A DNA stretch of 64,000 bases, taken from Anaerolineae bacterium (lineage in GTDB: Bacteria > Chloroflexota > Anaerolineae > S140-20). The stretch lies in contig JALUTT010000048.1 of assembly GCA_027021705.1 (NCBI GenBank), positions 1-64,000 on the forward strand, given 5' to 3'. A model generated the notes under the pieces. It saw only the letters and a program-made list of their open reading frames with translations. It had not been told where the DNA came from and made no database searches. The position numbers were made by a program, and so were the translations under genes. Position 1 is the stretch's first letter; each line of letters starts with the position of its first letter. Shown in pieces: positions 46,576 to 63,806 of the stretch.

Positions 46576-46959
46576 ATGACCGGCGCTACCATCTTGTATA
46601 TCGAAGACAACTTCGAGAACCGCGTTCTGGTCAGACGGGTTCTAGAGGCCTCGGGATACCAGGTCCTGGAGGCGGAGGACGGTCTGACCGGCATAGCCGT
46701 CGCGGAGGAACGCCGCCCGGATCTCATCCTGATGGACATCAACCTGCCCGAGGTAGATGGTTACGAAGTCACCACCCGTCTGAAACAGACGCCAGACCTT
46801 GCCCATATCCCGGTGATCGCGTTGACGGCCAACGTGATGCGAGGCGATCGGGAGAAGAGCCTGGCCGCCGGCTGCGACGGGTACATCCAGAAGCCCATAG
46901 ACGTAGATGCTCTCCCTGACCAAATTGCCGCTTTTCTGAAGCAAAGGAGCGAAGGATGA
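46576..46959 (+). CDS. single-domain response regulator, DivK-like
   Basis: ILYIEDN, LILMDINLP, IALTA, GCDGYIQKP. Confidence 0.93.
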   Translation: MTGATILYIEDNFENRVLVRRVLEASGYQVLEAEDGLTGIAVAEERRPDLILMDINLPEVDGYEVTTRLKQTPDLAHIPVIALTANVMRGDREKSLAAGCDGYIQKPIDVDALPDQIAAFLKQRSEG

Positions 46960-47429
46960 TGCCCCATCCGCAGACGCAGCCACCGTCTTCTTCAGCCTCA
47001 AACCGCCCTCGCCGACGGGTTGGGATTGCTCCCCAGGATGCCCACGTGTTGGTGGTTGAGGACAACCTGAACAACTTCCTGCTCATCACCCGTCTGCTGG
47101 CCTATCTGGGCGTCAAACAGTGTGAGTGGAAGGCTTCGGGGTGGCAGGTTCTCGAATTTGCCGATGCGATGCCTCAGGTGGACCTGATCCTGATGGACAT
47201 CCACATCCCCGATGAAGACGGCTATCAAGCCCTGGCCCGTCTGCGGGCTGAACCCCGTTTCCAGGACACCCTCATTGTGGCCGTCACTGCCGAGGCGACG
47301 GAGGACAACCTGCAGCGGGCCCGGCGGGCCGGCTTCGACGGCTTCATCGGCAAGCCCATTGATCCCGACCGCTTCCCCGATCAGATCCGACGCATCCTGC
47401 GTGGCGAAGAGATTTGGGAGTTGGGCTGA
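46956..47429 (+). CDS. single-domain response regulator
   Basis: VLVVEDN, LILMDIHIP, VAVTA, GFDGFIGKP. Confidence 0.92.
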   Translation: MMPHPQTQPPSSSASNRPRRRVGIAPQDAHVLVVEDNLNNFLLITRLLAYLGVKQCEWKASGWQVLEFADAMPQVDLILMDIHIPDEDGYQALARLRAEPRFQDTLIVAVTAEATEDNLQRARRAGFDGFIGKPIDPDRFPDQIRRILRGEEIWELG

Positions 47430-47448
47430 CCCCGCCGGGAGACAGGGC

Positions 47449-49926
47449 ATGGGCGACTCGGTGACGGCTCATCGGTCTTCCTCCCCTACGGCCAGAGCCG
47501 GGATGCGGGGGGGGCTGGGGCGCACACTCCTCAGCGCTTTTCTTGTTCTGGCTATCGTCCCGCTCAGCGTCGTCAGCTTCCTGGCCTCCGTCCAGGGGCG
47601 GCGCAACTTGGAGCGGGAGTTGAGGGAGCGGCTGATGGCCGTCACCACCCTTCGGGAGCAGCAGATTCAGGACTGGGTGACTGCCCAGCAGCAAGTCCTC
47701 GCCATGCTGTGCAGTGAGCCCACATTGATCGAGGCCGCTGAGGCTCTGGCAAACCCGCCCAGCGATCCAGAAATCCGGACCGCGATGCGCCGCCGTTTCC
47801 TTCAGATCATCAACCAGTACCCTGATCTTGAGCGCTTGCTCCTCCTCTCCCCCGAGGAAGGGCGGGTGCTGGTTGCTTCTGAGGCCTGGAAGGAAGGTCG
47901 GCGCTACAACGATGCGGCCCTGGTGGCAAAGGGGGGCGCTGGGCCCTACACCTACATCTCTCCGGGGACCGACTCCGGTGCCCCTACCCTGGTCCTGGTC
48001 CGGCCCGTCCGGGATGGGGAGCATCGGCGGGTGGGAACCCTGGTAGCCCACCTGCGTCTGGAGGCCCTGGGCAGGATCTTGGCGGAGAGCGTTGGGCTGG
48101 GCAGCACGGGACGCACCTATCTGGTGCTCCCTTCGGGGGAGATCCTGACCCAGGAGGGCTTTCTAACCGGTCAGGATGGTCGGCCGGCCATCCTCAATCC
48201 TGCCGTGGAGGCCGCTTTGCGGGGGGGGAACGGTATCGCCACCTACAAGAACGAAGCCGGTATCCTTGTGATCGGGGTTCACCGCTGGCTGCCCGACCCG
48301 GGGATCGCTCTGATCACGGAGCAGGCCCAGTCGGAGGCCTTCTCCCGCTCTGACGACCTGGCTGCAGCCCTCATCGCCACGGCCCTAGGTGCGGCTCTGC
48401 TGACTGCCATCATCGCTACCGTTGTCACTCGCCAGATCACCCGTCCCATCGTCCGGTTGACGGAGATGGCGGTTCAGATCGCCTCTGGTGACCTGGATCA
48501 GCGGGTCCCGGCCACCCGCCGCGACGAGATCGGCATCCTAGCCCGCGCTTTCAACATCATGACCGCCCGCCTCCAGGTCCTCTACGAGAGCCTGGAGCAG
48601 AAGGTCGCGGAACGAACCCGCCAACTCCAGGAGGCCAACGCCGAAATCCGCTACCAGGCGATCCAGTTGGCCACCAGCGCCGAGGTCGGGCGAATCGTCA
48701 CGTCCATTTTGGACCTGGAGAGCCTGCTTCCCCAAGTCGTTGAACTGATCCGCGATGCCTTCTCCGCCTATCACGTTTCCCTCTTCCTGACGGACGAAGA
48801 TGGGAAGTGGGCCCTCTTGCGGGAGGGGACGGGCGCGCTGGGAGAGCGGTTGAAGCGGGAGGGGTATCGCCTGCCGCTGGATGAGAGCAACTTGGTGGGA
48901 CGGGCCATCAACCGACGTGAGCCCTGCTTGGCCGTTGGGGAGGAGCGCCGAATCTTGGCCGACGTCGAGACCTTTCCTTACACCCAGGCCGAGTTGGTTA
49001 TCCCCCTCATCGTCCGGGATCGCCCCATTGGGGCGCTCAGCGTGCACAGCCTGGAGGAGGATGCCTTCGCTGGCTCCGAGGTGATGGTCCTGCAGACGCT
49101 GGCCGGCCAGGTGGCCATCGCCATCGAGAATGCTCGGGCCTATGCCCTGGAGCGGGAGGCCGCCGAGCAACTGCGGGAGCTAGATCGCTTCAAGACCCGT
49201 TTCCTAGCCAACATGTCCCACGAGTTGCGGGAACCCCTTAACACCATCATCGGCTTCTCCCGGGTGTTGCTCAAGGGGATTGATGGCCCCCTCAACGAGA
49301 TCCAACGGCAGGACATTACCTTTATCCACGACGCGGGCCAGCACCTGCTGGGCCTCATCAACGACATCCTGGACATCGCCGCCATCGAGGCGGGCAAGAT
49401 GGAACTGACGATCCGGGAGGTGAACCTGCGTGCGCTGTTGCAGAGCGTGATGGCGACGGCCAGCGCTCTGGTGCGCGGTCGCCCCATCGAACTCCAGTAC
49501 GACGTCGCCCCCGACCTGCCCGTCGTCCACGCCGATCCCCAACGGCTGCGTCAGGTGATCCTCAAGCTCCTCTCCAACGCAGCCCAGTTCACCGAAGAGG
49601 GAAGCATCACTCTGCGGGCCTGGAGTGAGGACGAGCAGGTCTTCATCAGCGTCAGCGACACGGGCATCGGCATTCCTGAGGCCGATCGGGATCGGATCTT
49701 CGAGCAGTTTCAGCGCCTGGACGGGAAGGGATCCCCCCACCTGGGGGGGGTTGGGCTGGGCTTGGCCCTGAGCAAGGAGTTCGTAGAGATGCACGGCGGC
49801 CAGATCTGGGTGGAGAGCGGCGTGGGCCGGGGTTCTACCTTCACCTTCAGCCTTCCCGTCCGCCCCATCCGATCGGGGGACCAGACCGTGACGGACGGGG
49901 TCCAGAGAGACGGGGTGTCCCTATGA
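47449..49926 (+). CDS. sensor histidine kinase: TM-Cache-TM-HAMP-GAF-HisKA-HATPase
   Basis: DEIGILARAFN; GAF; FLANMSHELREPLN; DTGIGI; GVGLGLALSKEFVEMHGG. Confidence 0.92.
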   Translation: MGDSVTAHRSSSPTARAGMRGGLGRTLLSAFLVLAIVPLSVVSFLASVQGRRNLERELRERLMAVTTLREQQIQDWVTAQQQVLAMLCSEPTLIEAAEALANPPSDPEIRTAMRRRFLQIINQYPDLERLLLLSPEEGRVLVASEAWKEGRRYNDAALVAKGGAGPYTYISPGTDSGAPTLVLVRPVRDGEHRRVGTLVAHLRLEALGRILAESVGLGSTGRTYLVLPSGEILTQEGFLTGQDGRPAILNPAVEAALRGGNGIATYKNEAGILVIGVHRWLPDPGIALITEQAQSEAFSRSDDLAAALIATALGAALLTAIIATVVTRQITRPIVRLTEMAVQIASGDLDQRVPATRRDEIGILARAFNIMTARLQVLYESLEQKVAERTRQLQEANAEIRYQAIQLATSAEVGRIVTSILDLESLLPQVVELIRDAFSAYHVSLFLTDEDGKWALLREGTGALGERLKREGYRLPLDESNLVGRAINRREPCLAVGEERRILADVETFPYTQAELVIPLIVRDRPIGALSVHSLEEDAFAGSEVMVLQTLAGQVAIAIENARAYALEREAAEQLRELDRFKTRFLANMSHELREPLNTIIGFSRVLLKGIDGPLNEIQRQDITFIHDAGQHLLGLINDILDIAAIEAGKMELTIREVNLRALLQSVMATASALVRGRPIELQYDVAPDLPVVHADPQRLRQVILKLLSNAAQFTEEGSITLRAWSEDEQVFISVSDTGIGIPEADRDRIFEQFQRLDGKGSPHLGGVGLGLALSKEFVEMHGGQIWVESGVGRGSTFTFSLPVRPIRSGDQTVTDGVQRDGVSL

Positions 49927-50783
49927 CCACCGTGATCGCGGTAGCCAACCACAAGGGCGGGGTTGCCAAGACCACCACCTGCCTCTCGTTGGGGGGAGGG
50001 TTGGTGGAGCAGGGACAACAGGTGCTGCTGGTGGACTTGGATCCTCAAGCCCACCTGACCGCCTCCTTGGGTATCAAGCCGGAGGGACTGCGCCGTAATG
50101 TGGGCGATGTTCTGTTGGGGCAGCGCTCCCTCGTGGCCGTCAGCCGGGAGACCTCTGTCCGAGGGCTGGATCTGGCCCCGGCTAACCAAGAACTCTTCGT
50201 CCTCGACAAGGTCCTGTACGGACGCCGAGGGTACGAATATCGGCTGCGCGAGGACCTGGACCGGATGTCCGAGCACCTTTACGACGTGATCCTGATAGAC
50301 TGTCCACCGACCTTTGGGACGTTGACCCTCAATGCCCTCACGGCCGCCGATCTGCTCATCGTTCCGGTCCAGTGCGAGTACTACGCCGTCCGCTCGCTCC
50401 ATCAGGTGCTGGAAATGGTCACCCTGGTGCGGCGCAAGACCAACCCCCGGCTTGGCTACCGGCTGCTGGTGACGCTCTTCGACGTGCGCAACAAGGTCCA
50501 CCGGCTGCTCCTGGAGCAACTGCGGGCCCGGTTTTCGGAGACGCTCTTCCAAACCGTCATCCAGGTGGACACGAAGCTGCGGGAGAGCCCGGCCTTTGCC
50601 TTGCCGGTCACCCACTACGCCCCCCGTACTCGGGCTGCGCATCAGTACCGGGCTCTGGCTCAGGAGACGATGGAGGTGGTGGCCCCTCGGACCTCCAGCG
50701 TCCCGACCGTAGCGCAGCCTGCCCAGCCAGAGCCGTCGTCGGTGCGTGAGCCGGTCATCGTGGGAGGCGGGATCGAACCGTAA
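49923..50783 (+). CDS. orphan ParA/Soj family ATPase
   Basis: NHKGGVAKTTT, VDLDPQA, IDCPP, VPVQCE; no parB in the window. Confidence 0.94.
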   Translation: MTTVIAVANHKGGVAKTTTCLSLGGGLVEQGQQVLLVDLDPQAHLTASLGIKPEGLRRNVGDVLLGQRSLVAVSRETSVRGLDLAPANQELFVLDKVLYGRRGYEYRLREDLDRMSEHLYDVILIDCPPTFGTLTLNALTAADLLIVPVQCEYYAVRSLHQVLEMVTLVRRKTNPRLGYRLLVTLFDVRNKVHRLLLEQLRARFSETLFQTVIQVDTKLRESPAFALPVTHYAPRTRAAHQYRALAQETMEVVAPRTSSVPTVAQPAQPEPSSVREPVIVGGGIEP

Positions 50784-50842: not shown

Positions 50843-53605
50843 ATGCCTGACGATCGGTTAAAGCGTTCCTTGGAAGAGCTCTTCTCCGATCTAACCCCAC
50901 CGGCCCCGGAGGGGGAGCCCGAGGCGGCCATCCCCCCATCTCTGCCTCCTGAGGAACCGCCCTCGAGGCCGGAGGTTGCCCTCCCACCGACTCCGTCGCC
51001 GGAGCCTATATCCGTTGCCCCCATCGAGGAGCCTTCCCCACCCCCCGGATGGATGCAGCGCCTCTCCCCCCGCCACTGGCGGCTACCGGCCCGGCTGTTG
51101 AGCCTTATGCTGCTGGTCACCCTGCTGCCCCTGATGATCCTCTCACTGCTCTTCTTCCGTGAAGGGGCGCGCGTCGTGGAGAACAGCGAGTTGCGCAACA
51201 TGGAGGCCATTGCCACGGGCCTGGCTCACCAGATAGACCAGTTGCTCTCTGATATGACCAGTGTGACCTCTATACCTGCTGATGAGGCTCCTGAGTTCCT
51301 CGTCCGGCTGCCTGCTGACCGAACGGACCTGATCGAGACCCTGCGGATCTTCTACAACGTGCCGGAGGATGTCGAAGCGTACCGGGAGGCTCGGGCCCGC
51401 TTGGAAGCTCTGGGCTTGTTAAAGCCTCTGAAGGCCGTGCATAGGGAGTTCCGAGCGATCCAGGAAGCCTATCACACCTTTGAGTCTATCTGCATCCTGG
51501 ATGACGCTGGCTACTGCCTGGCCGCCACCGACCCCAAGCTGGTTGGCCGTTCCTTTGCCACCAAGCGTTTCTACCAGATGGCGATGGAGGGCCAGGCTTT
51601 TACCTCCGACATCGAACCGGAGCTAGCGACCGGGCGCTTTGGCGTCGCGTTTGCCCGGCCCATCGTCGCCGACGATGGACGAATTCTGGGGGTTCTTGTC
51701 GCTCGCCTGGATGCCACCCCCATCTGGCGGATTCTGGAGGAGGTCTCCCTGGAGCCGGGGAGCTACGCGGTCCTGGTCAACCGGGACGGCATTATCATCG
51801 GCCACTCCGAGCGGGGGAACATCTATCAGAGCCTAGGGCCACTGTCCTCTGCCGTGCAGGAGGAGATCCGTCAGAGCCGCCGTTTCGGCGTGGAGGCGAT
51901 GCGGGACCTGGGGTTGCCTCAGGTTGCCGAGGCGCTGGCAGCCGCCAAGGGTCCTGGGCACATCCAATACCAGCGGGGAGATCAAGTGGAGTTCATGGGG
52001 TTCGCTCCCCTCCAGCAGCACACCTGGGTGGTGGGTGTGGTCAAACCCCAAGCCCAGTTGCTGGCCCCGCTGGGCGCTTTGGCCAACCGAGCGCTGGTGA
52101 TCGCCCTGGTCGTCGGGCTGATCGCCGGCGGTCTGGCCCTCCAGTTCAGTCACACGATCACCCGCCCTATCCTCCGGCTAACCGAGGTCGCCACCGCCAT
52201 CGCCAGCGGGGACTTGCGGCGAGAGGTGCCCATCGAGCGGGAAGATGAGATCGGTCTGCTGGGTCGGGCCTTCAACCGGATGGCGGCCCAACTGCGGGAG
52301 TTGATCGGAGGGTTAGAGGCCACGGTGGCCGAACGGACTCGGGCCCTTCAGGAGGCCAACTACCACCTCCAGAAGCGGGCCATCTACCTGGAGGCCAGCG
52401 CCGAGGTAGCCCGGGCCATCACCTCCATCCTCGACGTGGACCAGATGCTCCAGCGGACGGTAGACCTGATCCAGGAGCGGTTTGGCTTCTACCACGTTTC
52501 CATCTTTTTGGTGGACGAGGCGGAGGAGTGGGCTGTGGTACGGGCCTCGACGGGAGAGGTGGGGCGGATTATGATGGAAAAGCCCCACAAGCTGCGGGTG
52601 GGTGGACGCAGTATGGTGGGATGGACGGCGGCCCACCGGCAGCCCCGCATCGCCCTGGACGTGGGGGCCGATGCGGTCCACTTCGACAACCCGCTGCTGC
52701 CTCACACCCGTTCGGAGATGACGCTCCCCTTGATGATGCGGGGGCGGCTCCTGGGCGTGCTGGACGTTCAGTCCACCGAAGAGGCGGCCTTCGACGAGGA
52801 TGACGTGCGGGTGCTGCACAGCCTGGCCGACCAGATCGCCATCGCTCTGGAAAATGCCCGCCGGGTCTCCGACGAGGCAGCCCTGCTGGAGGCGACCAGC
52901 CCTCTCTACCGAGCCAGCCGCCGGTTGACGGAAGCGGTCTCCGCCGACCAGGTGGCAGAAGCCTTCATCGCCTCGGTGGTTGCCACCGAAGCCGATGGAT
53001 GCCTCGTCGGGCTTCTGGAGCCGCCGGATAGCGAAGAGCCGGATGCGGTCCACTTCATCGGCTCCTGGGGACGGGATGGAGTGGCCCCTGTCCCCGCCGG
53101 CTCCCGCTTCCCCCTCTCGGCCAGCCCTATCTCCGTCGCCTTCCTGTTGGAGCGTCAGGTGCTGTCCGAGATCGTCGAGGCTACCTCGCTCTCGCCCGAT
53201 CAGATCGCCTACCTGCAACGGGTGGGGGTGCAGGCGCTGATCAACATCCCCCTTCAGGGCGGCAAGAGGAAGATCGGCTTCGTCACCATCTTCCGAAAGC
53301 GCTCAGGCTCTTTCTCGGAGGCCACCCTGCGCCTGTACGAAGCCCTGAGCGGTCAAGTGGCAGTGGCCCTGGAGCGGGTGTGGCTCCTAGAGATCGCCCG
53401 TCGGCAGGCCGAGGAGGAGGCGGCACTGCGCGCCCTCGGCGATCGCCTGGCCCGGGCGGTGGATATGGAAGTGCTCCTCCAGAGCGCCGCCGAGGGGTTG
53501 GAACAGGCCCTGCGGGCCGGAGGGGTCTACATCGAGCTAGGCCCGGCACCGTTGGATGCGGACCTGCCGGGAAATGGGCGGGGAGGGGACAAGCGCCCAT
53601 CTTGA
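50843..53605 (+). CDS. membrane receptor: Pro-rich N-terminus, Cache, HAMP, two GAF, terminal GAF fragment; no catalytic output
   Basis: Two TMs; EDEIGLLGRAFN; RFGFYHVSIFL...PRIALDVG.DAV.FDNP.LPHTRSEM. Confidence 0.88.
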   Translation: MPDDRLKRSLEELFSDLTPPAPEGEPEAAIPPSLPPEEPPSRPEVALPPTPSPEPISVAPIEEPSPPPGWMQRLSPRHWRLPARLLSLMLLVTLLPLMILSLLFFREGARVVENSELRNMEAIATGLAHQIDQLLSDMTSVTSIPADEAPEFLVRLPADRTDLIETLRIFYNVPEDVEAYREARARLEALGLLKPLKAVHREFRAIQEAYHTFESICILDDAGYCLAATDPKLVGRSFATKRFYQMAMEGQAFTSDIEPELATGRFGVAFARPIVADDGRILGVLVARLDATPIWRILEEVSLEPGSYAVLVNRDGIIIGHSERGNIYQSLGPLSSAVQEEIRQSRRFGVEAMRDLGLPQVAEALAAAKGPGHIQYQRGDQVEFMGFAPLQQHTWVVGVVKPQAQLLAPLGALANRALVIALVVGLIAGGLALQFSHTITRPILRLTEVATAIASGDLRREVPIEREDEIGLLGRAFNRMAAQLRELIGGLEATVAERTRALQEANYHLQKRAIYLEASAEVARAITSILDVDQMLQRTVDLIQERFGFYHVSIFLVDEAEEWAVVRASTGEVGRIMMEKPHKLRVGGRSMVGWTAAHRQPRIALDVGADAVHFDNPLLPHTRSEMTLPLMMRGRLLGVLDVQSTEEAAFDEDDVRVLHSLADQIAIALENARRVSDEAALLEATSPLYRASRRLTEAVSADQVAEAFIASVVATEADGCLVGLLEPPDSEEPDAVHFIGSWGRDGVAPVPAGSRFPLSASPISVAFLLERQVLSEIVEATSLSPDQIAYLQRVGVQALINIPLQGGKRKIGFVTIFRKRSGSFSEATLRLYEALSGQVAVALERVWLLEIARRQAEEEAALRALGDRLARAVDMEVLLQSAAEGLEQALRAGGVYIELGPAPLDADLPGNGRGGDKRPS

Positions 53606-53616
53606 TTCCCTCGATA

Positions 53617-54605: not shown

Positions 54606-54651
54606 TGGGGTCGTGTTGATGGGGTCTTGATGGAGCCGTTGGAGACGACGC

Positions 54652-56361
54652 ATGGCTACAGGACCGCGATTTCACTCGCTCTCACCTGAAGAAGAAGAAA
54701 GGCGTCTGGAGCTGTTGCAGATCATTCTGATCGGTCAGGCCGTCGGGGCTGCCCTCATCGGGCTAGCGGTGATCGCGGTGTGGTACTTCAACCCCTCCCC
54801 GCTCACCTTCATCACCATCTTCCCGCCCTGGTTGGCGCTGCCCATCTGCGCCTTTGCCTACTGGCTGGCCCGACGAAAGCGCCTTTACCTCGCCACCTAC
54901 TTCTACATCATCACCACCGTCTTCCTGGTGGCCAGCGGCATCTACCTGGTGGGAGGCGCTCAGGGGCCGATGGCCTACTTCTTCATCTGGTTCATCCTGG
55001 TGGCCGGGATGCTCATTGACGTGCGGGCCGCCTTTGAGGTCGCTGCCCTGGTCACCGCCATTTACCTCTTCTTCACCTTGGGGGAGTTGGGAGGATGGAT
55101 TGTGCCACCGATGGACGTCTACCAGCGGGTGGCCGAGTACATCTTCCCCGGCTTCGCGATGTTGCTCTTTTGGCTGGTGGCCCTGCTGACCCGTCTCTTC
55201 AGTGGCAGCTTGCAATCGGCCCTGGACAAGGCTCGGCAGTTGACCGCTGAGTTGCAGGCCCACCGGGAGGAGCTGGAGGAGCAGGTCGCCCTGCGCACGG
55301 CGGACCTGGAGCGCCGGGCCGTGCAGATCCAGGTGGCGGCGGAGGTCGCCCGCGATGCCACGGCGGTTCTCGACGTTGAAGCGCTGATGCGCACCACGGT
55401 GGAGCGGATTGGCGAGCGTTTCGGCTTCTACCATGTCGGTATCTTCCTGCTGGACGAGGGGGGCGAGTACGCGGTGCTGCGGGCAGCCTCCTCGGAAGGG
55501 GGCAAGCGGATGCTGGCCCGGGGCCACAAGTTGAAGGTGGGGGAGGAGGGCATCGTCGGTTACGTGGCCGAGACCGGCCGGCCCCGCATCGCCTTGGACG
55601 TGGGGGAGGATGCGGTTTGGTTTGACAACCCGGACCTGCCTCACACCCGTTCGGAGATGGCGTTGCCGCTGAAGGTGCGCGGGCGGGTCATCGGCGTGCT
55701 GGACGTGCAGTCCACCCAGGAAGCCGCCTTCAAAGAGGAGGACATCCCGGTGCTCCAGCTCCTGGCCGATCAATTGGCTACCGCTCTGGAGAACGCACGC
55801 CTCTTCGCTCAGGCCCGGTCGAGCCTGGAAGAGCTGAGCCGTCTCTACCAGGCGATGACGGGAGAGGCCTGGCGACGGTTCACAACCTCCTGGCCGGACC
55901 TGCGCCGATTCCAGCGGGGAGCCGACGCGGTGCCGGAGGAAGCCTGGCGGGACCTCTTCGCCCAGGCCCGTTCCCAGGGACAACCGGTGAGGGGGTTCTG
56001 GGAGAATGGTGAGGGGGGCTGGTACCTGTTGGCTGTGCCGGTCAGGCTGCGCAACGTGCCCATTGGGGTGGTGGGATTCCATCGTCCTCAAGAGGCCGGC
56101 GAGTGGCGCAGGGAGGAGATCGTCTTCGCCGAGAGCTTGGCCGAACGGGTTGCCCTCTCCCTGGAGAACGTTCGACTCTTCGAGGAAGCCCAACGCCGCG
56201 CCCAGCGGGAGCAGTGGATCAGTCAAGTGACCGCGCGGATGCAGCGTTCTCTGGACTTGGAAACGGTGATGCGGGCGGCCGTGCGAGAGATCGGTCAGGC
56301 CATCGGGGCTGCCAAGGTGCAACTGCGGTTGAGGACGGATGGTCTGGAGCAGGAAGGGTGA
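54652..56361 (+). CDS. multi-TM receptor with coiled coil, GAF and split-GAF tail; no catalytic output
   Basis: About 6 TMs; RTADLERRA; conserved GAF; LAVPVRLRNVPIG...ALSLENVRLFEE. Confidence 0.88.
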   Translation: MATGPRFHSLSPEEEERRLELLQIILIGQAVGAALIGLAVIAVWYFNPSPLTFITIFPPWLALPICAFAYWLARRKRLYLATYFYIITTVFLVASGIYLVGGAQGPMAYFFIWFILVAGMLIDVRAAFEVAALVTAIYLFFTLGELGGWIVPPMDVYQRVAEYIFPGFAMLLFWLVALLTRLFSGSLQSALDKARQLTAELQAHREELEEQVALRTADLERRAVQIQVAAEVARDATAVLDVEALMRTTVERIGERFGFYHVGIFLLDEGGEYAVLRAASSEGGKRMLARGHKLKVGEEGIVGYVAETGRPRIALDVGEDAVWFDNPDLPHTRSEMALPLKVRGRVIGVLDVQSTQEAAFKEEDIPVLQLLADQLATALENARLFAQARSSLEELSRLYQAMTGEAWRRFTTSWPDLRRFQRGADAVPEEAWRDLFAQARSQGQPVRGFWENGEGGWYLLAVPVRLRNVPIGVVGFHRPQEAGEWRREEIVFAESLAERVALSLENVRLFEEAQRRAQREQWISQVTARMQRSLDLETVMRAAVREIGQAIGAAKVQLRLRTDGLEQEG

Positions 56362-56364
56362 GAC

Positions 56365-58596
56365 GTGGAGCGTGAGGAGAGAGAGCCTATGGAGGAGGCT
56401 GTGAATCGGTCGCCTGTGCGCCTATCCTTCGGATTACACGGGACCCTGGCGGTCAGGTTGGTCATCACCTTCATCCTCTTCGCCATCGTGCCCGTTCTTG
56501 TGGTGGGGGTGCCGGCGGCCTTCTGGTCCATCGCCCGCACCGAGCAGGGAGCTCTGGCCTCCCTGGAGGCCAGCGCGGTCCGGCAGGCCGAGGCACTGGA
56601 GGGCGCTATCCAGGATTGGCAGGCAGCGGTGGATGCCCTGGCGGCGGACCCAAAGGTGGCCATCAACCTTCAGGTTATGATGGGAATGGTAGAGGCCGAT
56701 GCACGCAAAGAGGCCCACGACAACCTGGTCTATCGCCTCGAACAGTTCCTGGCCGGCCACCAGAGCTTCCAGGATGCGATCATCGTGGATCTCGAGGGCA
56801 CCGCTCTCCTCTCCACGGCCTCCTATCGGGAAGGGGAAGACCTGAGCGCCGATCCTGCCGTGGCGTGGGCGCTGGGCCTGCCCATTCTCTCCAAAGCCGC
56901 CGTTCACTGGGGACCTGAGCAGCGGACCCCCGTCGTTGCTGTGCCGCTCCGCTTCTCCGCCGGTGATACTCGGGCCATCTTCGTGGCCTGGCTGGACGAC
57001 GATGCCGTGGCCCGTCTGCTCCAGGGGGCTGCCGTCACCTCGTTGTCCAGCCGGACCTATCTCTTCAGTCGCGAGGGGATGGTGGGGGCTGTGCCCGCCC
57101 TCGGCCCATCGGCGGCCGTCTCCTTTGGCTCCCCGGAGATTATGAGGGCTGCCCTGGTCGGCGGGTCAGGCGTTGCCAAGTACCGGAACGACGATGGGGT
57201 GGTGATGCTGGGGGCTTACCGTTGGCTGCCCACCTTGCGGATGGGGCTCCTGACGGAGGTCCCCCGCCAGGTGGTCGTAGAAGGCGTGATGGGCGCCATC
57301 GGCCGGGCCGTTGGTCTGCTCTACGTAGTCGGTTGGATAGGGCTGGTCGTCGCCGTCGCGATGGCCCGCAGCATCTCGATGCCTCTGGTGCGGCTGGCCC
57401 AGGCTGCCGAGCAGGTGGCTCAAGGGGACTTGAGCGTGCGCGTGCCCAGCGGGGGCCGGGATGAACTGGGGCTGCTGGTCCGAGTCTTCAACACGATGAC
57501 GGCCCAGTTGGAGCAGAGCGTCGGTGCCCTTGAGGAAGAGGTGGCGGCTCGCACGGCCAGCCTGCAGCGACGCACCTCCCAACTGGAGGCCACCATTGAG
57601 GTCACCCGTGTAGCCGCCTCGACGTTGGAGATGGACCACCTCCTCCAGCGCGTGGTGGACCTCATCTCCGAGCGCTTTGATTTCTATCACGCTGGCATCT
57701 TCTTGCTGGACGAGGGGGGCGAGTACGCGGTGCTGCGGGCAGCCTCCTCGGAAGGGGGCAAGCGGATGCTGGCCCGGGGCCACAAGTTGAAGGTGGGGGA
57801 GGAGGGCATCGTCGGTTACGTGGCCGAGACCGGCCGGCCCCGCATCGCTTTGGACGTGGGGGAGGATGCGGTTTGGTTTGACAACCCGGACCTGCCTCAC
57901 ACCCGTTCGGAGATGGCGTTGCCGCTGAAGGTGCGCGGGCGGGTCATCGGCGTGCTGGATGTGCAGTCCACCCAGGAGGCTGCCTTCACCCAGGAGGACA
58001 TCACCGTCCTCCAGGTGCTGGCCGACCAGGTGGCCATCGCCATTGACAACGCTCGCCTCTTCCAGGAGGCCCAGGAGAACCTGCAAGAGCTGGAGAGCCT
58101 CTACGGGCGTTACAGCCGGGAGGCCTGGGAGCGGTTGGGGCAGACCTACCCCATCGTCGGTTATCGCTACGACCCGTCGGGCCTTTCGCCCATCTTCGGC
58201 GACGGTGCCGGGGAGGGTGAGGCCGACGAAGAGGCTCCGATCCGCATCCCTCTAGAGGTGCGGGGGCAGGTGATCGGGACACTTGAGGTCTGGCCCGAGC
58301 AGGAGGCCCTGATCTCCGATCAGATTACCCTGCTCAAGGCGGTTGGGCTTCGGATCAGCCAGGCGCTGGAGAGTGCCCGTCTCTTCCAAGAGACGCAGCA
58401 GCGGGCCTGGCGCGAGCAGATGCTCCACCAGTTGACCGCCCGGTTCGCCCGTTCCATTGATCTGGATACGGTGCTGCAGACGGCGGTGCGTGAGTTGGCG
58501 CAGTTGCCTCACGTCGCCGAGGCCTCCATCCACGTGAGCCCCCCGGAAGTCCCTCCCCCGGCGAATGGGGGTGAGGAGGTAGCCCAGGATGAGTGA
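56365..58596 (+). CDS. Cache-HAMP receptor with GAF and split-GAF tail; no catalytic output
   Basis: Two TMs; GRDELGLLVRVFN; conserved GAF; GYRY...IPLEVRGQVIG. Confidence 0.88.
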   Translation: MEREEREPMEEAVNRSPVRLSFGLHGTLAVRLVITFILFAIVPVLVVGVPAAFWSIARTEQGALASLEASAVRQAEALEGAIQDWQAAVDALAADPKVAINLQVMMGMVEADARKEAHDNLVYRLEQFLAGHQSFQDAIIVDLEGTALLSTASYREGEDLSADPAVAWALGLPILSKAAVHWGPEQRTPVVAVPLRFSAGDTRAIFVAWLDDDAVARLLQGAAVTSLSSRTYLFSREGMVGAVPALGPSAAVSFGSPEIMRAALVGGSGVAKYRNDDGVVMLGAYRWLPTLRMGLLTEVPRQVVVEGVMGAIGRAVGLLYVVGWIGLVVAVAMARSISMPLVRLAQAAEQVAQGDLSVRVPSGGRDELGLLVRVFNTMTAQLEQSVGALEEEVAARTASLQRRTSQLEATIEVTRVAASTLEMDHLLQRVVDLISERFDFYHAGIFLLDEGGEYAVLRAASSEGGKRMLARGHKLKVGEEGIVGYVAETGRPRIALDVGEDAVWFDNPDLPHTRSEMALPLKVRGRVIGVLDVQSTQEAAFTQEDITVLQVLADQVAIAIDNARLFQEAQENLQELESLYGRYSREAWERLGQTYPIVGYRYDPSGLSPIFGDGAGEGEADEEAPIRIPLEVRGQVIGTLEVWPEQEALISDQITLLKAVGLRISQALESARLFQETQQRAWREQMLHQLTARFARSIDLDTVLQTAVRELAQLPHVAEASIHVSPPEVPPPANGGEEVAQDE

Positions 58597-60820
58597 TGGG
58601 AAGAAGACCAAGGAGCAGCTGATCGGAGAACTGCAGAAGCTACGCCGGCAGATCGCCGAGCTGCGAGAAGAGCGTCAGCGGACCGAGACGGAGCTCCTCC
58701 AGTGCTATCAGAGCCAGGAGGTGCTGAACGCTCTCTTCCAGCTCTCCTTGGAAGAGGCGACGTTGGAGGAGCAACTGGAGCGCGCTCTGGATGTCATCTT
58801 CACCACGCCCTGGCTCTCTATGTTGCCCAAGGGCAGCATCTTCCTCGTCGAAGATGATCCGGAGGTGCTGGTCCTGAAGGCGCAGCGGGGGCTGCCCCCA
58901 TCGCTGCAGACCAAGTGTGCCCGGCTTCCCTTCGGGCGCTGTCTCTGTGGCCGGGCCGCTGCCAGTGGCGAACTCCAGTTTGCCGACTGCGTGGACCACC
59001 GCCACGAGCACACCTACGAGGGCATCTCACCCCACGGGCACTACAACGTCCCGATCCTGCTAGAGGGTGAGGTGGTGGGTGTCCTCAACCTCTACGTCGA
59101 GGAAGGACACCGGCGGGATGAGCGGGAAGAGACTTTCCTGAAGGCGGTGGCCGGCACCCTCGCCAGCCTGATCAAGCGCAAGCGCGAAGAAGAAGAGCTG
59201 CGGCGAAGCCACCAGAGCCAGGAGGTGCTGAACGCTCTGATGCGCCTCTCTCTGGAGGAGACCTCGCTGGAAGAGCAGTTGGAGCGAGCCCTCGACGTGA
59301 TCCTCTCCACCCCCTGGCTCCCCGCGCTGCCGAAGGGGGGCATCTTCCTTGTGGAGGGGGATTCCGGCGAAATCGTGTTGAAGGCCCAGCGGAACCTAGA
59401 CGATCCGTTGCTGACCCTGTGCGCTCGGGTGCCCTTTGGCCGCTGCCTCTGTGGTCGGGCGGCGGCGAGCGGCAAGATCCAGTTTGCGGACAGGGTGGAC
59501 GACCGCCACGAGATCCACTTTGAGGGGATGGCCCCTCACGGCCACTACAGCGTTCCCATCGTCTTGGACGATAGGGTGGTGGGCGTGATCGTCGCCTACG
59601 TGGAGGAAGGGCACCGGCCGAACAGACAGGAGGAAGCCTTCCTGGAGGCAGTGGCGAACACGCTGGCCGGCCTGATCAAGCGCAAGCAGGCGGAAGAAGC
59701 GCTGCAGCGGGCTCACGATGAGTTGGAGCGACGGGTCGAGGAGCGCACCCGCGATCTGGAGCACAGAGCTGTACAGCTTCAAGTGGCCGCTGAGGTGGCC
59801 CGCGACGCGGCCACAGCCTGGGAACTGGATACCCTGTTGGAGCGGGCCGTCAACCTCGTTCGCGACCGATTCGGCTTTGACCACGTGGGCATCTTCCTGA
59901 CGGACGAGCGGGGCGGGTATGCTCTCTTGAAGGCGGCGACGGAGGAGATGGGCCGCCAGTTGCTGGAACAGGGATACAAGCTGAGGATCGAAGATGGGGG
60001 CCTCGTCGGATCCGCCATCGCTACCGGCGAACCCCAGGTCGCCCTTGATCTCGAGGCGGACGGCGAAGCTGCTGAGGTCCCCTTGCTCCCCCACACCCGG
60101 TCGGAGGTGGTCCTGCCGCTCAAGGTGGGGGATCAGATCATCGGTGCCCTTGATGTGCGCAGCACCGATAGCGCCGTCTTTGGGCAGGATGACGTGGCGG
60201 TCCTGCAGATCGTGGCCGACCAGTTGGCGGTGGCCATCGAGAAGGCGCACCTGCTCCACGAGATGGAGCAGACGGTCCACGAACTGGAAGCGGCCTATGG
60301 GCGTTACACCCAGGAGTCGTGGCGTGCCTTCGTCCAGAGCGCTGGACAGCCCTACGGCTACCGGTACCGAGGGTTGGATGTCGAACGGACCACGGAGCTG
60401 CACCCGGAGGCGCGGGAAGCCCTGCAGCAGGGCCGTTCGGTGGTCACCATCCTCCAGCCAGAGGTGGAAGACGGTCAGCAGAACGCCGTCAGCGCTCTGG
60501 CTGTGCCCGTCAAGCTGCGCGGTCAGGTGATCGGGGTCCTCAACCTGCGCTTCGAGGACAAAACCATCCTGCCGGAGACCATTTCGCTGGTAGAGGAGGC
60601 AGCCGGTCGGTTAGCCCTCGTGCTGGAGAGCGCCCGCCTCTTCAGCGAGGCCCAGGCCCGTGCTGAGCGCGAACGCCTGATCGCCGACATCACGCACCAG
60701 GTGTGGGCGGCGCGGGATTTCCAGCAGATTGTCGAGACGACCTTGCGTTCTTTGAGTCAGGTGCTCGGGGCCTCAGAGGCCGTCGTCCGTCTCCAGACCA
60801 ACGGGCAGCAAGAGGGGTGA
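58589..60820 (+). CDS. soluble receptor with two Cys-rich GAF repeats, conserved GAF and split-GAF tail
   Basis: No TM; two CARxPFGRCLCGRAA repeats; RFGFDHVGIFL GAF; GYRY...LAVPVKLRGQVIG. Confidence 0.88.
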   Translation: MSDGKKTKEQLIGELQKLRRQIAELREERQRTETELLQCYQSQEVLNALFQLSLEEATLEEQLERALDVIFTTPWLSMLPKGSIFLVEDDPEVLVLKAQRGLPPSLQTKCARLPFGRCLCGRAAASGELQFADCVDHRHEHTYEGISPHGHYNVPILLEGEVVGVLNLYVEEGHRRDEREETFLKAVAGTLASLIKRKREEEELRRSHQSQEVLNALMRLSLEETSLEEQLERALDVILSTPWLPALPKGGIFLVEGDSGEIVLKAQRNLDDPLLTLCARVPFGRCLCGRAAASGKIQFADRVDDRHEIHFEGMAPHGHYSVPIVLDDRVVGVIVAYVEEGHRPNRQEEAFLEAVANTLAGLIKRKQAEEALQRAHDELERRVEERTRDLEHRAVQLQVAAEVARDAATAWELDTLLERAVNLVRDRFGFDHVGIFLTDERGGYALLKAATEEMGRQLLEQGYKLRIEDGGLVGSAIATGEPQVALDLEADGEAAEVPLLPHTRSEVVLPLKVGDQIIGALDVRSTDSAVFGQDDVAVLQIVADQLAVAIEKAHLLHEMEQTVHELEAAYGRYTQESWRAFVQSAGQPYGYRYRGLDVERTTELHPEAREALQQGRSVVTILQPEVEDGQQNAVSALAVPVKLRGQVIGVLNLRFEDKTILPETISLVEEAAGRLALVLESARLFSEAQARAERERLIADITHQVWAARDFQQIVETTLRSLSQVLGASEAVVRLQTNGQQEG

Positions 60821-60851
60821 GTGGCAACGGGGCGTGTGAAGGGGTGATGTT

Positions 60852-63806
60852 ATGACGCTGACCGATACCGTCATTCTGTGGACTATTGCAGCGGCCAACC
60901 TCTTGCTGGGGGGGTACATCTTCGTGATGGACCCGCGTCATCGGGCCAACCGCTATCTGAGCGGGATGCTCCTGCTGGGGGCTCTCTACAATTTCGCCCT
61001 GGGGAGCATGGCGCGAGACCTCTTCCCAAAGCCCCAGCTTTGGCCCTTCTACGTGCTGGTGATTACGCTGCCGGTCATCAGCCCGATGATGGTTTTGAGC
61101 ACCATCGCTCTTTTGCAACCGATCTGGTTGGACAGCGGATGGGGGCGATGGATGGCGCGTCTCCTGCACCTCCTGATCCTGCTCCCTCCGCTGCTGGTTC
61201 TGCGCGATGAGCTCGGCCCTGGCCGCCTCTACTTCGCTCCTCCCGCTTCCTACGCCGGGGGCTACGTCGCTCCTCGGGCCTACCTCCAGCAGCCCTTGGG
61301 CTGGATGCTCTTCCTGCTCAGTGAGCGCTGGATCTCGCTGATCGCCCTGGCCACCATCCTCGTCACCCTCCTCTCGAGACGGGCATCTCCTCGTGTCCGA
61401 CGCCTGGCCAGCGGGCTGCTCGTCACCCACTTGGCCGTCACGGCACTCTTCCTGGGAGGACGCAGCCTTCTCCCCATCCCTTCCTTTTGGATTGCCTCGT
61501 TGGGCAGCGCCATCCTGGCCCTGATCTACACCCTGGTGGCCCTCCCTGGCTACCTCTCGAATGCCTTCTTCGAGCGATGGATCGCCAACATCCCGGTGGG
61601 ACGCAAGATGCTGTTGGTTAACAGCGTCCTGTCGGTGGCCGCCATTCTGATGGGGATCGGGGTGATGTGGAGCACAGAGGCCAGTCGCCGGATCCTCCGG
61701 GAGAAGCTGGATGCCGAGCAGACCAAGCTCTACCGGCTTAGCAAAATCGAGTCGTCCCTGCGGGAACTCCAAGGGCTCCACCTGCGCTTCTACGACCAGT
61801 GGCTGACGGCGAACCCCGATGTCCAGAATTTCGATTTCCTGCTGGTCCGCTATCAGGTACCTATGGGGAACGTCCTCGACCTCCTGGATCAGGACCTGGA
61901 GTGGCTCTACGGGGTGGAGGAGGATGAGCCGGCCGACGTGATGGAGATCGCTGCGATAGAGTCCCGTATGCAAGCCTATCGCCAGAGCCTGGCCGGCCTG
62001 ATTCAGAGCATGCGGATGGTGGGGCGGGTTGGACGGGAGGGGACCGCACGGCTACAGGCTATGAGCGACCTGGTGGAGGCCAACGGGTTGAGCACCATCT
62101 TGGAGACGGTGCACAGGGTCTGGCACTACCAGGATGCCTACCTGTTGAATCCGACGGACGATCAGGCCGAGGTGATCCAGGACGAGGTGGACCGGTTGAC
62201 GACCAGCATAGCGGCCCTCTCGGCGGATCAGCTTTCCGATCAGGATCGCGCCCACTTGAACACCTTGCTGATCGAATACCGCCAGCAGTTCCAGCAGTTC
62301 ATTGAGCTCCGTGCGGATGCCTCAGCGCACCTGGCCAGTCTGGAACGCGACAGCGAAGAGGCTCTTATGGCCCTGGAACGGCTGCGTTCCTACGAACAGG
62401 CCGAGTTCAACGAGTTGATGCGGGCCCTCAACGCCCGTCAATTGACCACCCGAGCCATCGTGCTGGGTATCCTGGCCCTGAGCCTCATCGCCACCTACTT
62501 CTTCAGTTGGAACATAGCCGACCAGATCAGCCGGCCCGTCCAGGTCCTGGCCGAGGTTGCTTCCCGGCTGGGGGCCGGGGAGCTGGACGCGCGGACCGGG
62601 ATGCGGCGGCAGGACGAACTGGGGGTGGTGGCCCTCCGGCTCGATCAGATGGCGGATCAGCTCCAGGGTCTCTTGAGCGACTTGGAGATTCAGGTGGCCG
62701 AGCGAACCCGGGCCCTGGAACGGCGGGCTACCCAGATCCAGGCAGTGTCCGAGGTGGGACGGGCTGTGGCTGCAGTGCGCCATCTGGATCAGCTGCTGGA
62801 CCGGGTCGTCCACCTTATCTCCGAGCGGTTCGGCTTCTACCATGCCGGCATCTTTCTGATGGATGAGGAGGGCCGCTGGGCGGAACTCCGCGCTGCCAGC
62901 AGCCCTGGCGGTCAGCAGATGCTGGCCCGGGGCCATCGGCTGGCGACGGGTGACACCAGCATCGTCGGTTGGGTGGCTCAGCACCGGCAGCCCCGCATCG
63001 CTCTAGACGTGGGGGAGGATGCCGTCTGGTTTGACAACCCCGACCTGCCCCAGACGCGCTCGGAGATGGCCCTGCCCCTCATCGCTGGTGGGGAACTGCT
63101 GGGCGTGCTCGACGTGCAGAGCACCGAGGCAGGGGCCTTCAGCGAGGAGGACGTCGAGGTTCTCCAGCTTCTGGCCGATCAGGTCGCCATCAGCATCGTC
63201 AACGCCCGCCTCTTCGTCCGGATGCAGGAGGCGCTCCAAGAGGTGGAAACGCTGAACCGGCAGCTTACCGGGCGGGCGTGGGAGGAGTTCGTCCGCGCCA
63301 CGGGCCTTCCCCCTGGCTACCGCTATCGGGCAACCCGCCTGGAGCCCCTCCGCGACGGTTCGGAGGATCCCGTCCTGGACCAGGCTGCCAAGCGCCAGCG
63401 CGTCGTAGTGGTCCAGCAGGATGGGCAGGCGGAGATGGCACTGCCCCTGGTGCTGCGAGGGCAGGTGATCGGTACCCTCGGCTTCCGGCGTCAGGACGGT
63501 CAGAGTTGGGATGCGAGAACCGTAGAGGTCGCCCAGGCTATCGTCGAGGAGATGGTTCGCGCCCTGGAAAGCGCCCGCCTCTTCGAGGAAGCCCAGGCCC
63601 GCGCCGCCCGCGAGCAGGTGACGGCTCGGGTCGTCGCCCGCATCCGCGAGTCGTTGGACCTGGACACCGTGCTGCGGACGGCCGCTCAGGAGATGCAGAG
63701 GGTGCTCAACCTGGCGGAGGTCGAGGTGCGAGTCGGCGGGGACAGGACGTCAGGACAGGCAGAGGATCAGCCCCCTGCTGAGCGGGGCGAGGGAGGGACC
63801 CGATGA
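60852..63806 (+). CDS. multi-TM (HisKA_7TM-like) + helical-bundle + HAMP receptor with GAF and split-GAF tail
   Basis: About 8 N-terminal TMs; helical extracellular region; RQDELGVVA; conserved GAF; GYRY...LPLVLRGQVIG. Confidence 0.87.
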   Translation: MTLTDTVILWTIAAANLLLGGYIFVMDPRHRANRYLSGMLLLGALYNFALGSMARDLFPKPQLWPFYVLVITLPVISPMMVLSTIALLQPIWLDSGWGRWMARLLHLLILLPPLLVLRDELGPGRLYFAPPASYAGGYVAPRAYLQQPLGWMLFLLSERWISLIALATILVTLLSRRASPRVRRLASGLLVTHLAVTALFLGGRSLLPIPSFWIASLGSAILALIYTLVALPGYLSNAFFERWIANIPVGRKMLLVNSVLSVAAILMGIGVMWSTEASRRILREKLDAEQTKLYRLSKIESSLRELQGLHLRFYDQWLTANPDVQNFDFLLVRYQVPMGNVLDLLDQDLEWLYGVEEDEPADVMEIAAIESRMQAYRQSLAGLIQSMRMVGRVGREGTARLQAMSDLVEANGLSTILETVHRVWHYQDAYLLNPTDDQAEVIQDEVDRLTTSIAALSADQLSDQDRAHLNTLLIEYRQQFQQFIELRADASAHLASLERDSEEALMALERLRSYEQAEFNELMRALNARQLTTRAIVLGILALSLIATYFFSWNIADQISRPVQVLAEVASRLGAGELDARTGMRRQDELGVVALRLDQMADQLQGLLSDLEIQVAERTRALERRATQIQAVSEVGRAVAAVRHLDQLLDRVVHLISERFGFYHAGIFLMDEEGRWAELRAASSPGGQQMLARGHRLATGDTSIVGWVAQHRQPRIALDVGEDAVWFDNPDLPQTRSEMALPLIAGGELLGVLDVQSTEAGAFSEEDVEVLQLLADQVAISIVNARLFVRMQEALQEVETLNRQLTGRAWEEFVRATGLPPGYRYRATRLEPLRDGSEDPVLDQAAKRQRVVVVQQDGQAEMALPLVLRGQVIGTLGFRRQDGQSWDARTVEVAQAIVEEMVRALESARLFEEAQARAAREQVTARVVARIRESLDLDTVLRTAAQEMQRVLNLAEVEVRVGGDRTSGQAEDQPPAERGEGGTR

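Follow-up and report, generated by a model that had tools for sequence, protein, structure and literature searches.

Five adjacent genes in the window, a 64,000-nucleotide stretch of an Anaerolineae genome (Chloroflexota; contig JALUTT010000048.1), encode receptors that all end in a stub of about 48 residues resembling the beginning of a GAF domain. This raises the question of what the start of a sensor domain does at the very end of a sensor. The five genes (50843-63806) are co-directional and encode sensors without an enzymatic output; no output domain was found in P0001-P0005 with Pfam and NCBIfam, and the neighbouring P0006 has HisKA and HATPase domains. The methyl-accepting signalling domain is absent from all five receptors in a Pfam scan, and neither CheA nor CheW was seen in the scanned parts of the window. 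The features of the locus are as follows.

46956..47429 (+): single-domain response regulator (Pfam Response_reg, E 2.4e-20)
47212..49926 (+): histidine kinase P0006, with dCache, HAMP, GAF, HisKA and HATPase, without a stub
49923..50783 (+): ParA/MinD-type ATPase (Pfam AAA_31, E 6.3e-49)
50843..53605 (+): receptor P0005, 920 aa, with TM, dCache, HAMP, GAF, complete second GAF and stub
53396..53539 (+): stub of P0005, about residues 852-899 (tail alignment; coordinates counted from the translation)
54652..56361 (+): receptor P0001, 569 aa, multi-TM, with GAF, AW module and stub
55807..56190 (+): AW module of P0001, residues 386-513 (hhalign and AF2)
56191..56334 (+): stub of P0001, residues 514-561 (hhalign and AF2)
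56365..58596 (+): receptor P0002, 743 aa, with TM, dCache-like, HAMP, GAF, AW module and stub
58063..58395 (+): AW module of P0002, about residues 567-677 (Pfam and tail alignment)
58396..58536 (+): stub of P0002, about residues 678-724 (tail alignment; coordinates counted from the translation)
58589..60820 (+): receptor P0003, 743 aa, soluble, with coiled coil, three GAFs, AW module and stub
60260..60652 (+): AW module of P0003, about residues 558-688 (AF2 and Foldseek)
60653..60796 (+): stub of P0003, residues 689-736, or 128-175 in tail numbering (two-copy prediction)
60852..63806 (+): receptor P0004, 984 aa, multi-TM, with helical region, HAMP, GAF, AW module and stub
63216..63593 (+): AW module of P0004, about residues 789-914 (Pfam and tail alignment)
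63594..63734 (+): stub of P0004, about residues 915-961 (tail alignment; coordinates counted from the translation)

The listed start of P0006 overlaps the receiver ORF, so its true start is probably further downstream. A tail HMM, run against all 380 window ORFs of at least 80 aa, matched the five receptors and, partially, the kinase, and revealed no further tail-bearing gene. The 1 kb gap between P0005 and P0001 (53606-54651) contains small repeats only, with no Pfam, NCBIfam or Rfam family.

Profile comparisons identify the stub as a homologue of the segment of a phytochrome/CBCR-type GAF domain that comprises the connecting helix, the first helix and the first strand. It aligned to the signalling helix, alpha1 and beta1 of GAF1 (P0001 220-270) with a profile-profile (hhalign) probability of 92% (E 6.5e-7). 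A profile of the five tails, searched against the PDB, matched both the N-terminal ~47 residues of constructs with an isolated GAF (2lb5_A, E 1.7e-10; 8k9o_A, E 1.7e-6) and GAF-GAF junctions (8w26_A, E 3.2e-18; 6oap_A, E 1.4e-13), and at the sequence level this likeness to the GAF N-terminus exceeds chance. The stub sequence corresponds to the ordinary junction between successive GAFs of tandem-GAF proteins. The stub of P0001 consists of the connecting helix, an alpha1-like helix (536-551) and a beta1-like stretch (555-560), as placed by hhalign and AF2.

The original prediction had read four of the tails as the C-terminal part of a GAF followed by its missing N-terminal half. All four intervals do fall in the C-terminal tails of P0001-P0004, where a GAF C-terminal part is followed by an N-terminal-like fragment. 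The likeness of this fragment to a GAF N-terminus stood up in the hhalign and PDB comparisons, but a half it is not, as it covers the connecting helix, alpha1 and beta1 only, with beta2 and the middle helices absent. It was also correctly noted that the 50843 protein (P0005) keeps the fragment despite a complete second GAF (GAF_2 profile 3-136, tail residues 29-173). A complete GAF likewise precedes the stub in 13 of 40 sampled relatives, and the stub was found after three different kinds of last domain.

The tails of P0001-P0004 carry an "AW" module which, in Pfam, matches the C-terminal part of GAF profiles only. The isolated tails of P0001, P0003 and P0004 match positions 90-133 (of 133), 48-132 and 30-132 of the GAF profile with 34.4, 37.9 and 29.4 bits, respectively, while that of P0002 scores 22.5 bits with GAF (cut-off 22.4) and 24.7 bits with GAF_2 (positions 80-136), under the GAF_2 cut-off. 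By gathering score (PF01590, PF13185 or PF13492) the modules belong to the GAF families, but the match is partial, covering PF01590 from position 30, 48 or 90 to 133 only. The AW linker has a Trp that all five tails share and that is conserved to at least 90% across 95 homologues. In P0001 the hhalign match to the C-terminal half of GAF1 (probability 98.8%) is limited to residues 48-126 of the module.

The AF2 models modify this picture. The P0003 module is modelled with its own N-terminal helix and beta-hairpin, and its elements (tail H2-23, E29-33, E36-40, H45-53, E57-61, E73-82, E85-94 and a helix from 101) follow the normal GAF order of helix, two strands, helix, three strands and helix. 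Foldseek aligned this tail model sequentially to ordinary GAF domains, which made up all of its top matches (4g3k_B, E 3.3e-4, 123 columns, target TM 0.43), the modest TM-scores being due in part to the long helix. The P0001 module model has helices and only three strands (446-479). A GAF reduced to its C-terminal half is thus a correct description of the sequence, and in the model the P0003 module appears compact and GAF-like. An ordinary, unpermuted GAF tail, named beforehand as the outcome that would count against a split domain, is in part what is predicted, since the P0003 module lies in normal GAF order. Both monomer models keep the stub apart from the module, either on a long helix or behind one, and leave its last residues unstructured. 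In P0003 it sits on one continuous helix (101-165; pLDDT 82.9), and in P0001 two helices (487-533 and 536-551) are followed by coil.

The position at which the chain ends is conserved. Of 95 homologues, 90 stop 1-25 residues past the stub strand, and 272 of the 285 full tails in Chloroflexota loci end no more than 61 residues past it. A profile search of 1.84 billion proteins found a stub ending in 35 of the 150 top representatives. Among 34 non-overlapping orthologue pairs the median dN/dS of the stub was 0.082 compared with 0.166 for the module; the stub value was below 0.3 in 33 pairs and below that of the module in 30. Poor conservation of the terminal fragment, which would also have counted against the original prediction, was therefore not observed. 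The stub is under selection and is best explained as a non-autonomous piece whose hydrophobic face would need a partner.

Of 79 related Chloroflexota loci, gathered with a three-tail alignment and 10 kb flanks, 78 contained stub-ending ORFs, 415 in total. These are all co-directional within their own locus and form arrays of up to 10; fifty of the loci contain 5 to 10. The receptor family is large and, in the genomes searched, confined to the Chloroflexota. The tail profile matched 9,659 representatives at E 1e-30 or better, many of which are general tandem-GAF proteins, and the giant relatives are tandem GAF arrays of 6-21 repeats. There is no curated family for the tail in NCBIfam. The ESM Atlas contained essentially only GAF-domain clusters, mostly from Chloroflexota, and the only database names seen for relatives were "GAF domain-containing protein" and "hypothetical protein". 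A search for stand-alone tails or stubs gave 18 short matches and no convincing free-standing form; all 18 are on contigs of 900-6,024 bases and are probably cut genes. Relatives of the ParA-like ATPase (best E 1.9e-106), the catalytic part of the kinase P0006 and the receiver (best E 2.9e-70) were present in 22, 28 and 37 of the 79 loci, respectively, and in the gene maps the ATPase often lies between the receptor array and the kinase.

A candidate partner for the stub came from the prediction of two copies of the P0003 tail, which placed each stub on the last domain of the other copy above controls, with ipSAE values of 0.42, 0.41 and 0.43 and a best value of 0.00 among three controls. In a calibration of the tool, 20 of the 30 proteins whose structures are pairs of one chain attained this ipSAE mark, as did 1 of the 23 with single-chain structures; these counts apply only roughly because a custom alignment served as input. 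Contact agreement between the runs was at least 88% and the partner pLDDT at least 72. Tail residues 149-176 contact residues 28-34, 86-95 and 103-121 of the other copy, so that each predicted stub lies on the partner's beta5, alpha5 and first strand. The pairs 165-103, 161-107 and 157-110, together with 171-92/30/31, indicate a stub helix antiparallel on alpha5 and a stub strand on beta5 and beta1'. The predicted interface is symmetric and forms a closed reciprocal pair, not an open polymer. Completion of a GAF in trans was the second possibility raised originally, together with polymerisation and a role of the 50843 protein as initiator or cap. It gains support as regards docking on another copy from a single in silico test (ipSAE 0.42 compared with 0.00), but only as a closed pair. 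The two-copy score supports docking in trans without proving it. It lies exactly at the pass mark, comes from one predictor applied to isolated tails, and may reflect a memory of solved GAF dimers.

Taken with the conservation and the arrays, this prediction suggests that the sensors probably hold on to each other by the stub, which would then be a handle and not a rearranged domain. The more specific reading, a reciprocal handle acting in trans to join receptors and not the permuted half of the stub's own domain, is given slightly less than even odds (roughly 0.45). The receptors would be sensors without output whose last GAF-type domain, either the compact AW module or an ordinary GAF, is followed by a stub cut off just after the first strand of a phytochrome/CBCR-type GAF. 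The stub would most likely pair with another receptor chain, on whose last domain its helix would pack antiparallel on alpha5 and its strand would lie beside beta5 and the first strand. In the GAF topology this is the site occupied by a domain's own alpha1 and beta1. The outcome would be a reciprocal tail-to-tail handshake. As 4-10 paralogous receptors with varied sensors and a common stub are encoded beside an ATPase, a kinase and a receiver, the handshake would most likely join receptors, building homo- or hetero-oligomers and passing the state of the receptors to the kinase. The analysis shows the homology, the conservation, the gene arrays and the predicted folds; that the stub binds at all, that it does so in this geometry in full-length proteins, and that kinase and ATPase are linked to it, we infer.

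Several points sit uneasily with this reading. The antiparallel pair puts the N-termini at opposite ends, whereas these receptors would be expected to form parallel dimers in the membrane. The AW module can do without a stub for folding, as copies inside giant proteins have no free stub next to them, and coevolution among the tails showed no excess of stub-module pairs. Where the stub lies behind a complete GAF, the alpha1/beta1 site is already occupied, so one acceptor site cannot serve the whole family. A wider version, in which the handshakes knit 4-10 receptors into a mixed lattice that is positioned by the ParA/MinD-type ATPase and read by one kinase, with the members that have a complete GAF acting as donate-only caps, is unlikely.

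The alternative that survives best is possible but doubtful. It supposes that the receptors form a parallel dimer along a helical spine and that the two stubs pair mutually, as the end of a coiled coil, two helices and a two-stranded sheet, closing and stabilising the spine with no contact to the last domain of another receptor. The identity of the stub with the ordinary inter-GAF junction of tandem-GAF proteins is consistent with this, as is the straight helix on which the AF2 monomers hold the stub. The three kinds of last domain that precede the stub also fit a partner that is always present, namely the other stub. Mean-field DCA of 416 tails (an effective number of 341) gave mostly gap artefacts and noise; stub-module pairs made up 5 of the top 45 long-range pairs, where about 15 are expected by chance, and two weak pairs, 134-172 and 131-172, joined the stub strand and the connecting helix. 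These two pairs would suit mutually paired stubs, but the signal is weak, and the two-copy prediction put the stub on the other copy's domain and gave no confident contacts for residues 122-148.

The stub could instead be a docking tag recognised by a shared cluster protein, either the ParA/MinD-type ATPase, the kinase or the receiver, much as a C-terminal tether might recruit one factor to every receptor. The same stub is present on all array receptors whatever their sensor part or last domain, these receptors have no output domain of their own, and the three candidate partners recur among the loci. They do so, however, in a minority to half of the loci (10 kb flanks), and giant tandem-GAF proteins outside the mapped loci (35 of 150) also end in the stub. 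This reading is improbable.

Circular permutation in cis, in which the stub would turn back to the AW module of the same chain and provide the alpha1 and beta1 that the module lacks, was the first possibility raised originally and now appears very improbable. The sequences favour it, as the module matches the C-terminal part of a GAF and the stub the N-terminal part, so that N-terminal elements do follow C-terminal ones in the chain (hhalign), and the P0001 module model has only three strands. Against this, neither AF2 monomer (P0001 or P0003) folds the stub back into its own domain, and the P0003 module, with its own N-terminal helix and hairpin, matches GAF folds sequentially. Stubs also sit behind complete GAFs, as in P0005 and the 13 sampled relatives. 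In addition, 45 of 150 representative giant proteins contain the AW module at internal positions (55 matches), and in 19 of the 55 the module is followed directly by a near-complete GAF which keeps alpha1 and beta1 for itself; as no free stub is adjacent to such internal modules, the module does not need one to fold.

As a last alternative, the stub would be a functionless relic, left behind when truncation removed the rest of a GAF. This would account for its homology to the segment of tandem arrays where one GAF is joined to the next and the next begins, but it is practically ruled out by a median stub dN/dS of 0.082, below that of the module, by the recurring cut point (90 of 95 homologues, 272 of 285 tails), and by the retention of the stub in 415 genes across 78 loci.

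The tails show similarities to several known systems. The stub and the preceding helix match junctions and N-termini of tandem GAF phytochrome- and cyanobacteriochrome-type sensor kinases (8w26, 6oap and 4bwi, Cph2; E 2e-8 for 4bwi with the five-tail profile). Those proteins continue into a whole GAF and usually then an enzyme domain, whereas here the chain stops 1-25 residues past the first strand with no output domain. In CyaB2 (PDB 1ykd; a weak match to the five-tail profile, E 0.0052) and PDE2A, as here, long helices join GAF domains and build the dimer. The CyaB2 dimer is antiparallel, that of PDE2A parallel. In both of these, whole GAFs pair, unlike the predicted placement of a GAF fragment on the whole domain of another chain. 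The proposed handshake may resemble 3D domain swapping or the donor-strand complementation of chaperone-usher pili, as a non-autonomous element would be given to a neighbour's sheet. There is, however, no homology to the pili, the acceptor module seems to have no gap, and the model is a closed pair and not a fibre. The gene arrays, with many paralogous receptors that lack a kinase domain beside a ParA-type ATPase, a kinase and a receiver, are also reminiscent of ParA-positioned chemoreceptor arrays. ParC and PpfA are ParA-like ATPases that position such arrays. The five receptors differ in having no methyl-accepting domain, and an assembly of the proteins into arrays is purely an inference.

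No description of a conserved, selected GAF fragment that ends a protein was found in full-text literature searches. GAF domains are among the commonest sensor modules, and the family raises the question of how a signal leaves receptors that have no output domain. Docking in trans by the stub, if it occurs, would be a new mode of sensor assembly and would account for the grouping of up to ten such genes in Chloroflexota next to one kinase and a ParA-type ATPase. Should the lattice version be true, these receptors would form a GAF-built counterpart of the chemoreceptor arrays.

Five co-directional receptor genes occupy the window's final 13 kb, preceded by genes for a receiver, a histidine kinase and an ATPase.

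Genes of the receptor cluster
46956-47429, + strand, single-domain receiver, directly upstream of the receptor genes
47212-49926, + strand, histidine kinase P0006, with a dCache-HAMP-GAF front end as in the receptors
49923-50783, + strand, ParA/MinD-type ATPase, adjoining the receptor genes on the upstream side
50843-53605, + strand, receptor P0005: dCache, HAMP, GAF, GAF
54652-56361, + strand, receptor P0001: multi-TM, GAF
56365-58596, + strand, receptor P0002: dCache-like, HAMP, GAF
58589-60820, + strand, receptor P0003: soluble, three GAFs
60852-63806, + strand, receptor P0004: multi-TM, HAMP, GAF

No output domain was recognisable in the five receptors with Pfam or NCBIfam, and an HMM of their tails (last domain plus a C-terminal stub of ~48 residues) matched, among 380 window ORFs of at least 80 aa, only these receptors and, partially, the kinase. 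The longest kinase ORF, which starts within the receiver ORF, opens with ~100 low-complexity residues; the true start is probably downstream of 47212. On its N-terminal side P0003 has two near-duplicate GAF domains (residues ~40-370; 58589-59700); the Cys/His-rich stretch in each, with several His and an RCLCGR motif, suggests metal or redox sensing.

The ~1 kb between P0005 and P0001 (53606-54651) contains no recognisable gene and no Rfam match. An Arg/Gly/Pro-rich ORF of 317 aa (53666-54619) belongs to no Pfam or NCBIfam family and has weak matches only, in one of 79 related Chloroflexota loci (L001-L079); the gap also holds a 23-nt inverted repeat (53702-53848). Gaps of ~1 kb between receptor genes also occur in several of these loci (e.g. 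L001, L006, L008). The content of 313-26894 is unrelated to the receptor tails.

Genes in 313-26894
313-4182, BTAD-AAA-TPR regulator
6879-9893, 17972-20227 and 20261-22459, three Calx-beta proteins (two with beta-helix, one with PD40 repeat)
14996-17908 and 23841-26894, two large proteins with a Peptidase_S74 intramolecular-chaperone domain

The four stretches originally predicted to be split or permuted GAF domains are the C-terminal tails of P0001-P0004. Scanned alone, these matched GAF models in their later part only, from profile position 30, 48, 80 or 90 to the end. The tail of P0005 has, as predicted, a complete second GAF (profile 3-136) and yet ends in the same fragment; the Trp of the (E/S)AW linker is invariant across all five. 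In profile-profile comparisons (sub-alignments from 95 homologues) with GAF1, the preceding GAF of P0001, only residues 48-126 of the AW module, the last domain after the linker, aligned, to the C-terminal half (probability 98.8%), while the stub aligned to the signalling helix, alpha1 and beta1 (probability 92%, E 6.5e-7). A five-tail profile matched the first ~47 residues of the isolated GAF constructs 2lb5_A (E 1.7e-10), 8k9o_A, 6oza_A and 3oov_A, and GAF-GAF junctions in 8w26_A (3.2e-18), 6oap_A (1.4e-13) and Cph2 4bwi_A (2e-8). Because partial Pfam, GAF1-profile and independent PDB matches agree, the GAF-like terminal fragment is real, beyond chance. By sequence, the stub is the counterpart of three elements of a phytochrome/CBCR-type GAF (connecting helix, first helix, first strand) and ends right after the last of them.

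We infer that a conserved amphipathic helix and strand carried at the tip of a long exposed helix should need a partner. Two P0003 tail copies predicted together gave ipSAE values of 0.42, 0.41 and 0.43 (best of three controls 0.00), which lie at a threshold reached by 20/30 proteins solved as one-chain pairs and 1/23 single chains, counts that are only rough here because a custom alignment was used; the predictor may also remember solved GAF dimers. Contact agreement between runs was at least 88% and partner pLDDT at least 72. Contacts are symmetric: in each copy, residues 149-176 meet the partner's first strand (28-34), beta5 (86-95) and, with heptad spacing, alpha5 (103-121), the closest pairs being 165-103, 161-107 and 157-110, and 171 with 90, 92, 30 and 31. 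The stub helix is thus predicted to lie antiparallel on alpha5 of the other chain and the stub strand alongside its beta5; in the GAF topology a domain's own alpha1 and beta1 sit on this alpha5/beta5 face. The two-copy prediction favours docking in trans without proving it. A coevolution analysis of the tails (416 sequences, effective number 341) was dominated by gaps and noise, and stub-module pairs were not enriched in it.

We favour, at a probability of roughly 0.45, a stub that would act as a trans-docking handle and link receptors through their tails, as homo- or hetero-oligomers whose joined state would be read by the kinase. Of the predicted completion in trans, the placement of the stub on a second chain's domain (ipSAE 0.42) is supported, and the need of the module for the stub is not: the AW module folds without it in internal occurrences. 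Also weighing against the handle, complete GAFs, whose site is already filled, carry the stub too, and the complex score is borderline. The antiparallel pair of isolated tails needs reconciling with the parallel dimers expected of membrane receptors; a parallel dimer closed by a stub-stub end cap is the next candidate, clearly less probable than the handle. An elaboration of the handle into a mixed receptor lattice, positioned by the ParA-like ATPase and with complete-GAF members as chain ends, seems unlikely.

Chloroflexota (Anaerolineae/Anaerolineales, Thermoflexia/Thermoflexales, Caldilinea) account for all 79 related loci, and the identity of the window's tails to their best matches is at most 52-58%. 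Stub-ending ORFs number 415 in 78/79 loci and are all co-directional within a locus; the stub is preceded by an AW module in 268 and by a different last domain in 147.

Stub-ending ORFs per locus
1/2/3/4/5/6/7/8/9/10 ORFs, in 8/6/5/9/11/9/14/8/7/1 loci

Within 10 kb flanks, relatives of the ATPase were found in 22/79 loci (best E 1.9e-106), of the receiver in 37/79 (2.9e-70) and of the kinase in 28/79 (1.2e-101), with receptors, ATPase, kinase as a recurring order. What is conserved is thus an array: paralogous receptors that lack an output domain, have one C-terminal stub in common and are encoded next to a single kinase, a single receiver and a positioning-type ATPase. That the stub is a common docking tag for one of these three neighbours is improbable. 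In many Anaerolineales loci (L009-L021) the order is fixed: receiver, three stub receptors without a recognised AW module, two with, one without, two to three with. Because many loci share it, the paralogues look like old, individually conserved members, not recent duplicates. A fusion of PALP (PLP-dependent enzyme) and receiver adjoins the arrays in 13/79 loci, e.g. L043:15396-17159.

Folding of the stub onto its own module in cis was also proposed. For the P0003 tail, AlphaFold2 (95-row alignment, pLDDT 82.9, pTM 0.64) predicts a module of helix, two strands, helix, three strands, helix; a single helix (101-165) then continues along the stub, leaving residues 166-182 as coil. The top Foldseek matches in PDB were all GAF domains in sequential alignment (4g3k_B, E 3.3e-4; 3o5y; 5w10; 2xss), with modest TM-scores of at most 0.46 on target. 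The normal GAF order of P0003 is less well seen in full-length P0001 (pLDDT 80.9), whose poorer module has three strands only and whose stub forms helices 487-533 and 536-551, then coil; in neither model does the stub fold back. Internal matches to the module profile, 55 in all, occurred in 45 of the top 150 representatives, 19/55 being followed within ~25 residues by a near-complete GAF; matches starting at profile positions 15-30 may be ordinary GAFs, and in the cleanest (start at 1-3) the downstream alpha1/beta1 are part of the next domain. Besides P0005, the stub follows a complete GAF in 13/40 relatives, one more being borderline, sampled from the 132 non-AW stub-ending ORFs of at least 300 aa (147 in total). 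Sequential GAF order, a straight stub helix, internal modules before GAFs and stubs after complete GAFs led us to reject permutation in cis, which is very improbable.

The tail profile gave 83,254 matches at E<=1e-3 (9,659 at <=1e-30) among 1.84 billion representatives. The top 150 are giant tandem-GAF proteins (1,140-3,952 aa, 6-21 matched stretches), of which 35 end in the stub and most others extend 150-800 residues past the last matched stretch. Poor conservation of the fragment, which would have refuted the original prediction, is not what the homologues show: 95 of near-equal length conserve the stub about as well as the module, and 90/95 chains end 1-25 residues past its strand. Of 285 complete, stop-terminated tails in the 79 loci, 272 finish within 61 residues of where the profile ends; the remaining 13 ORFs run on for at least 183 residues, and in them the stub-like sequence presumably opens a genuine additional domain. 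Across 34 non-overlapping orthologue pairs (70-93% identical; median dS ~1, so saturation is a caveat) median dN/dS was 0.082 for the stub vs 0.166 for the module, the stub value being below 0.3 in 33/34 and below that of the module in 30/34. The stub is thus kept under selection, and this low dN/dS with the recurrent chain end is the ground for rejecting a functionless GAF relic, the least probable reading.

The homologues examined bear generic database names throughout. In a full-text literature search, judged by listings and abstract openings, neither a terminal GAF that is permuted, split or truncated nor receptor arrays like these in Chloroflexota came up. GAF-array sensors are of a known kind; the selected terminal GAF stub seems new.
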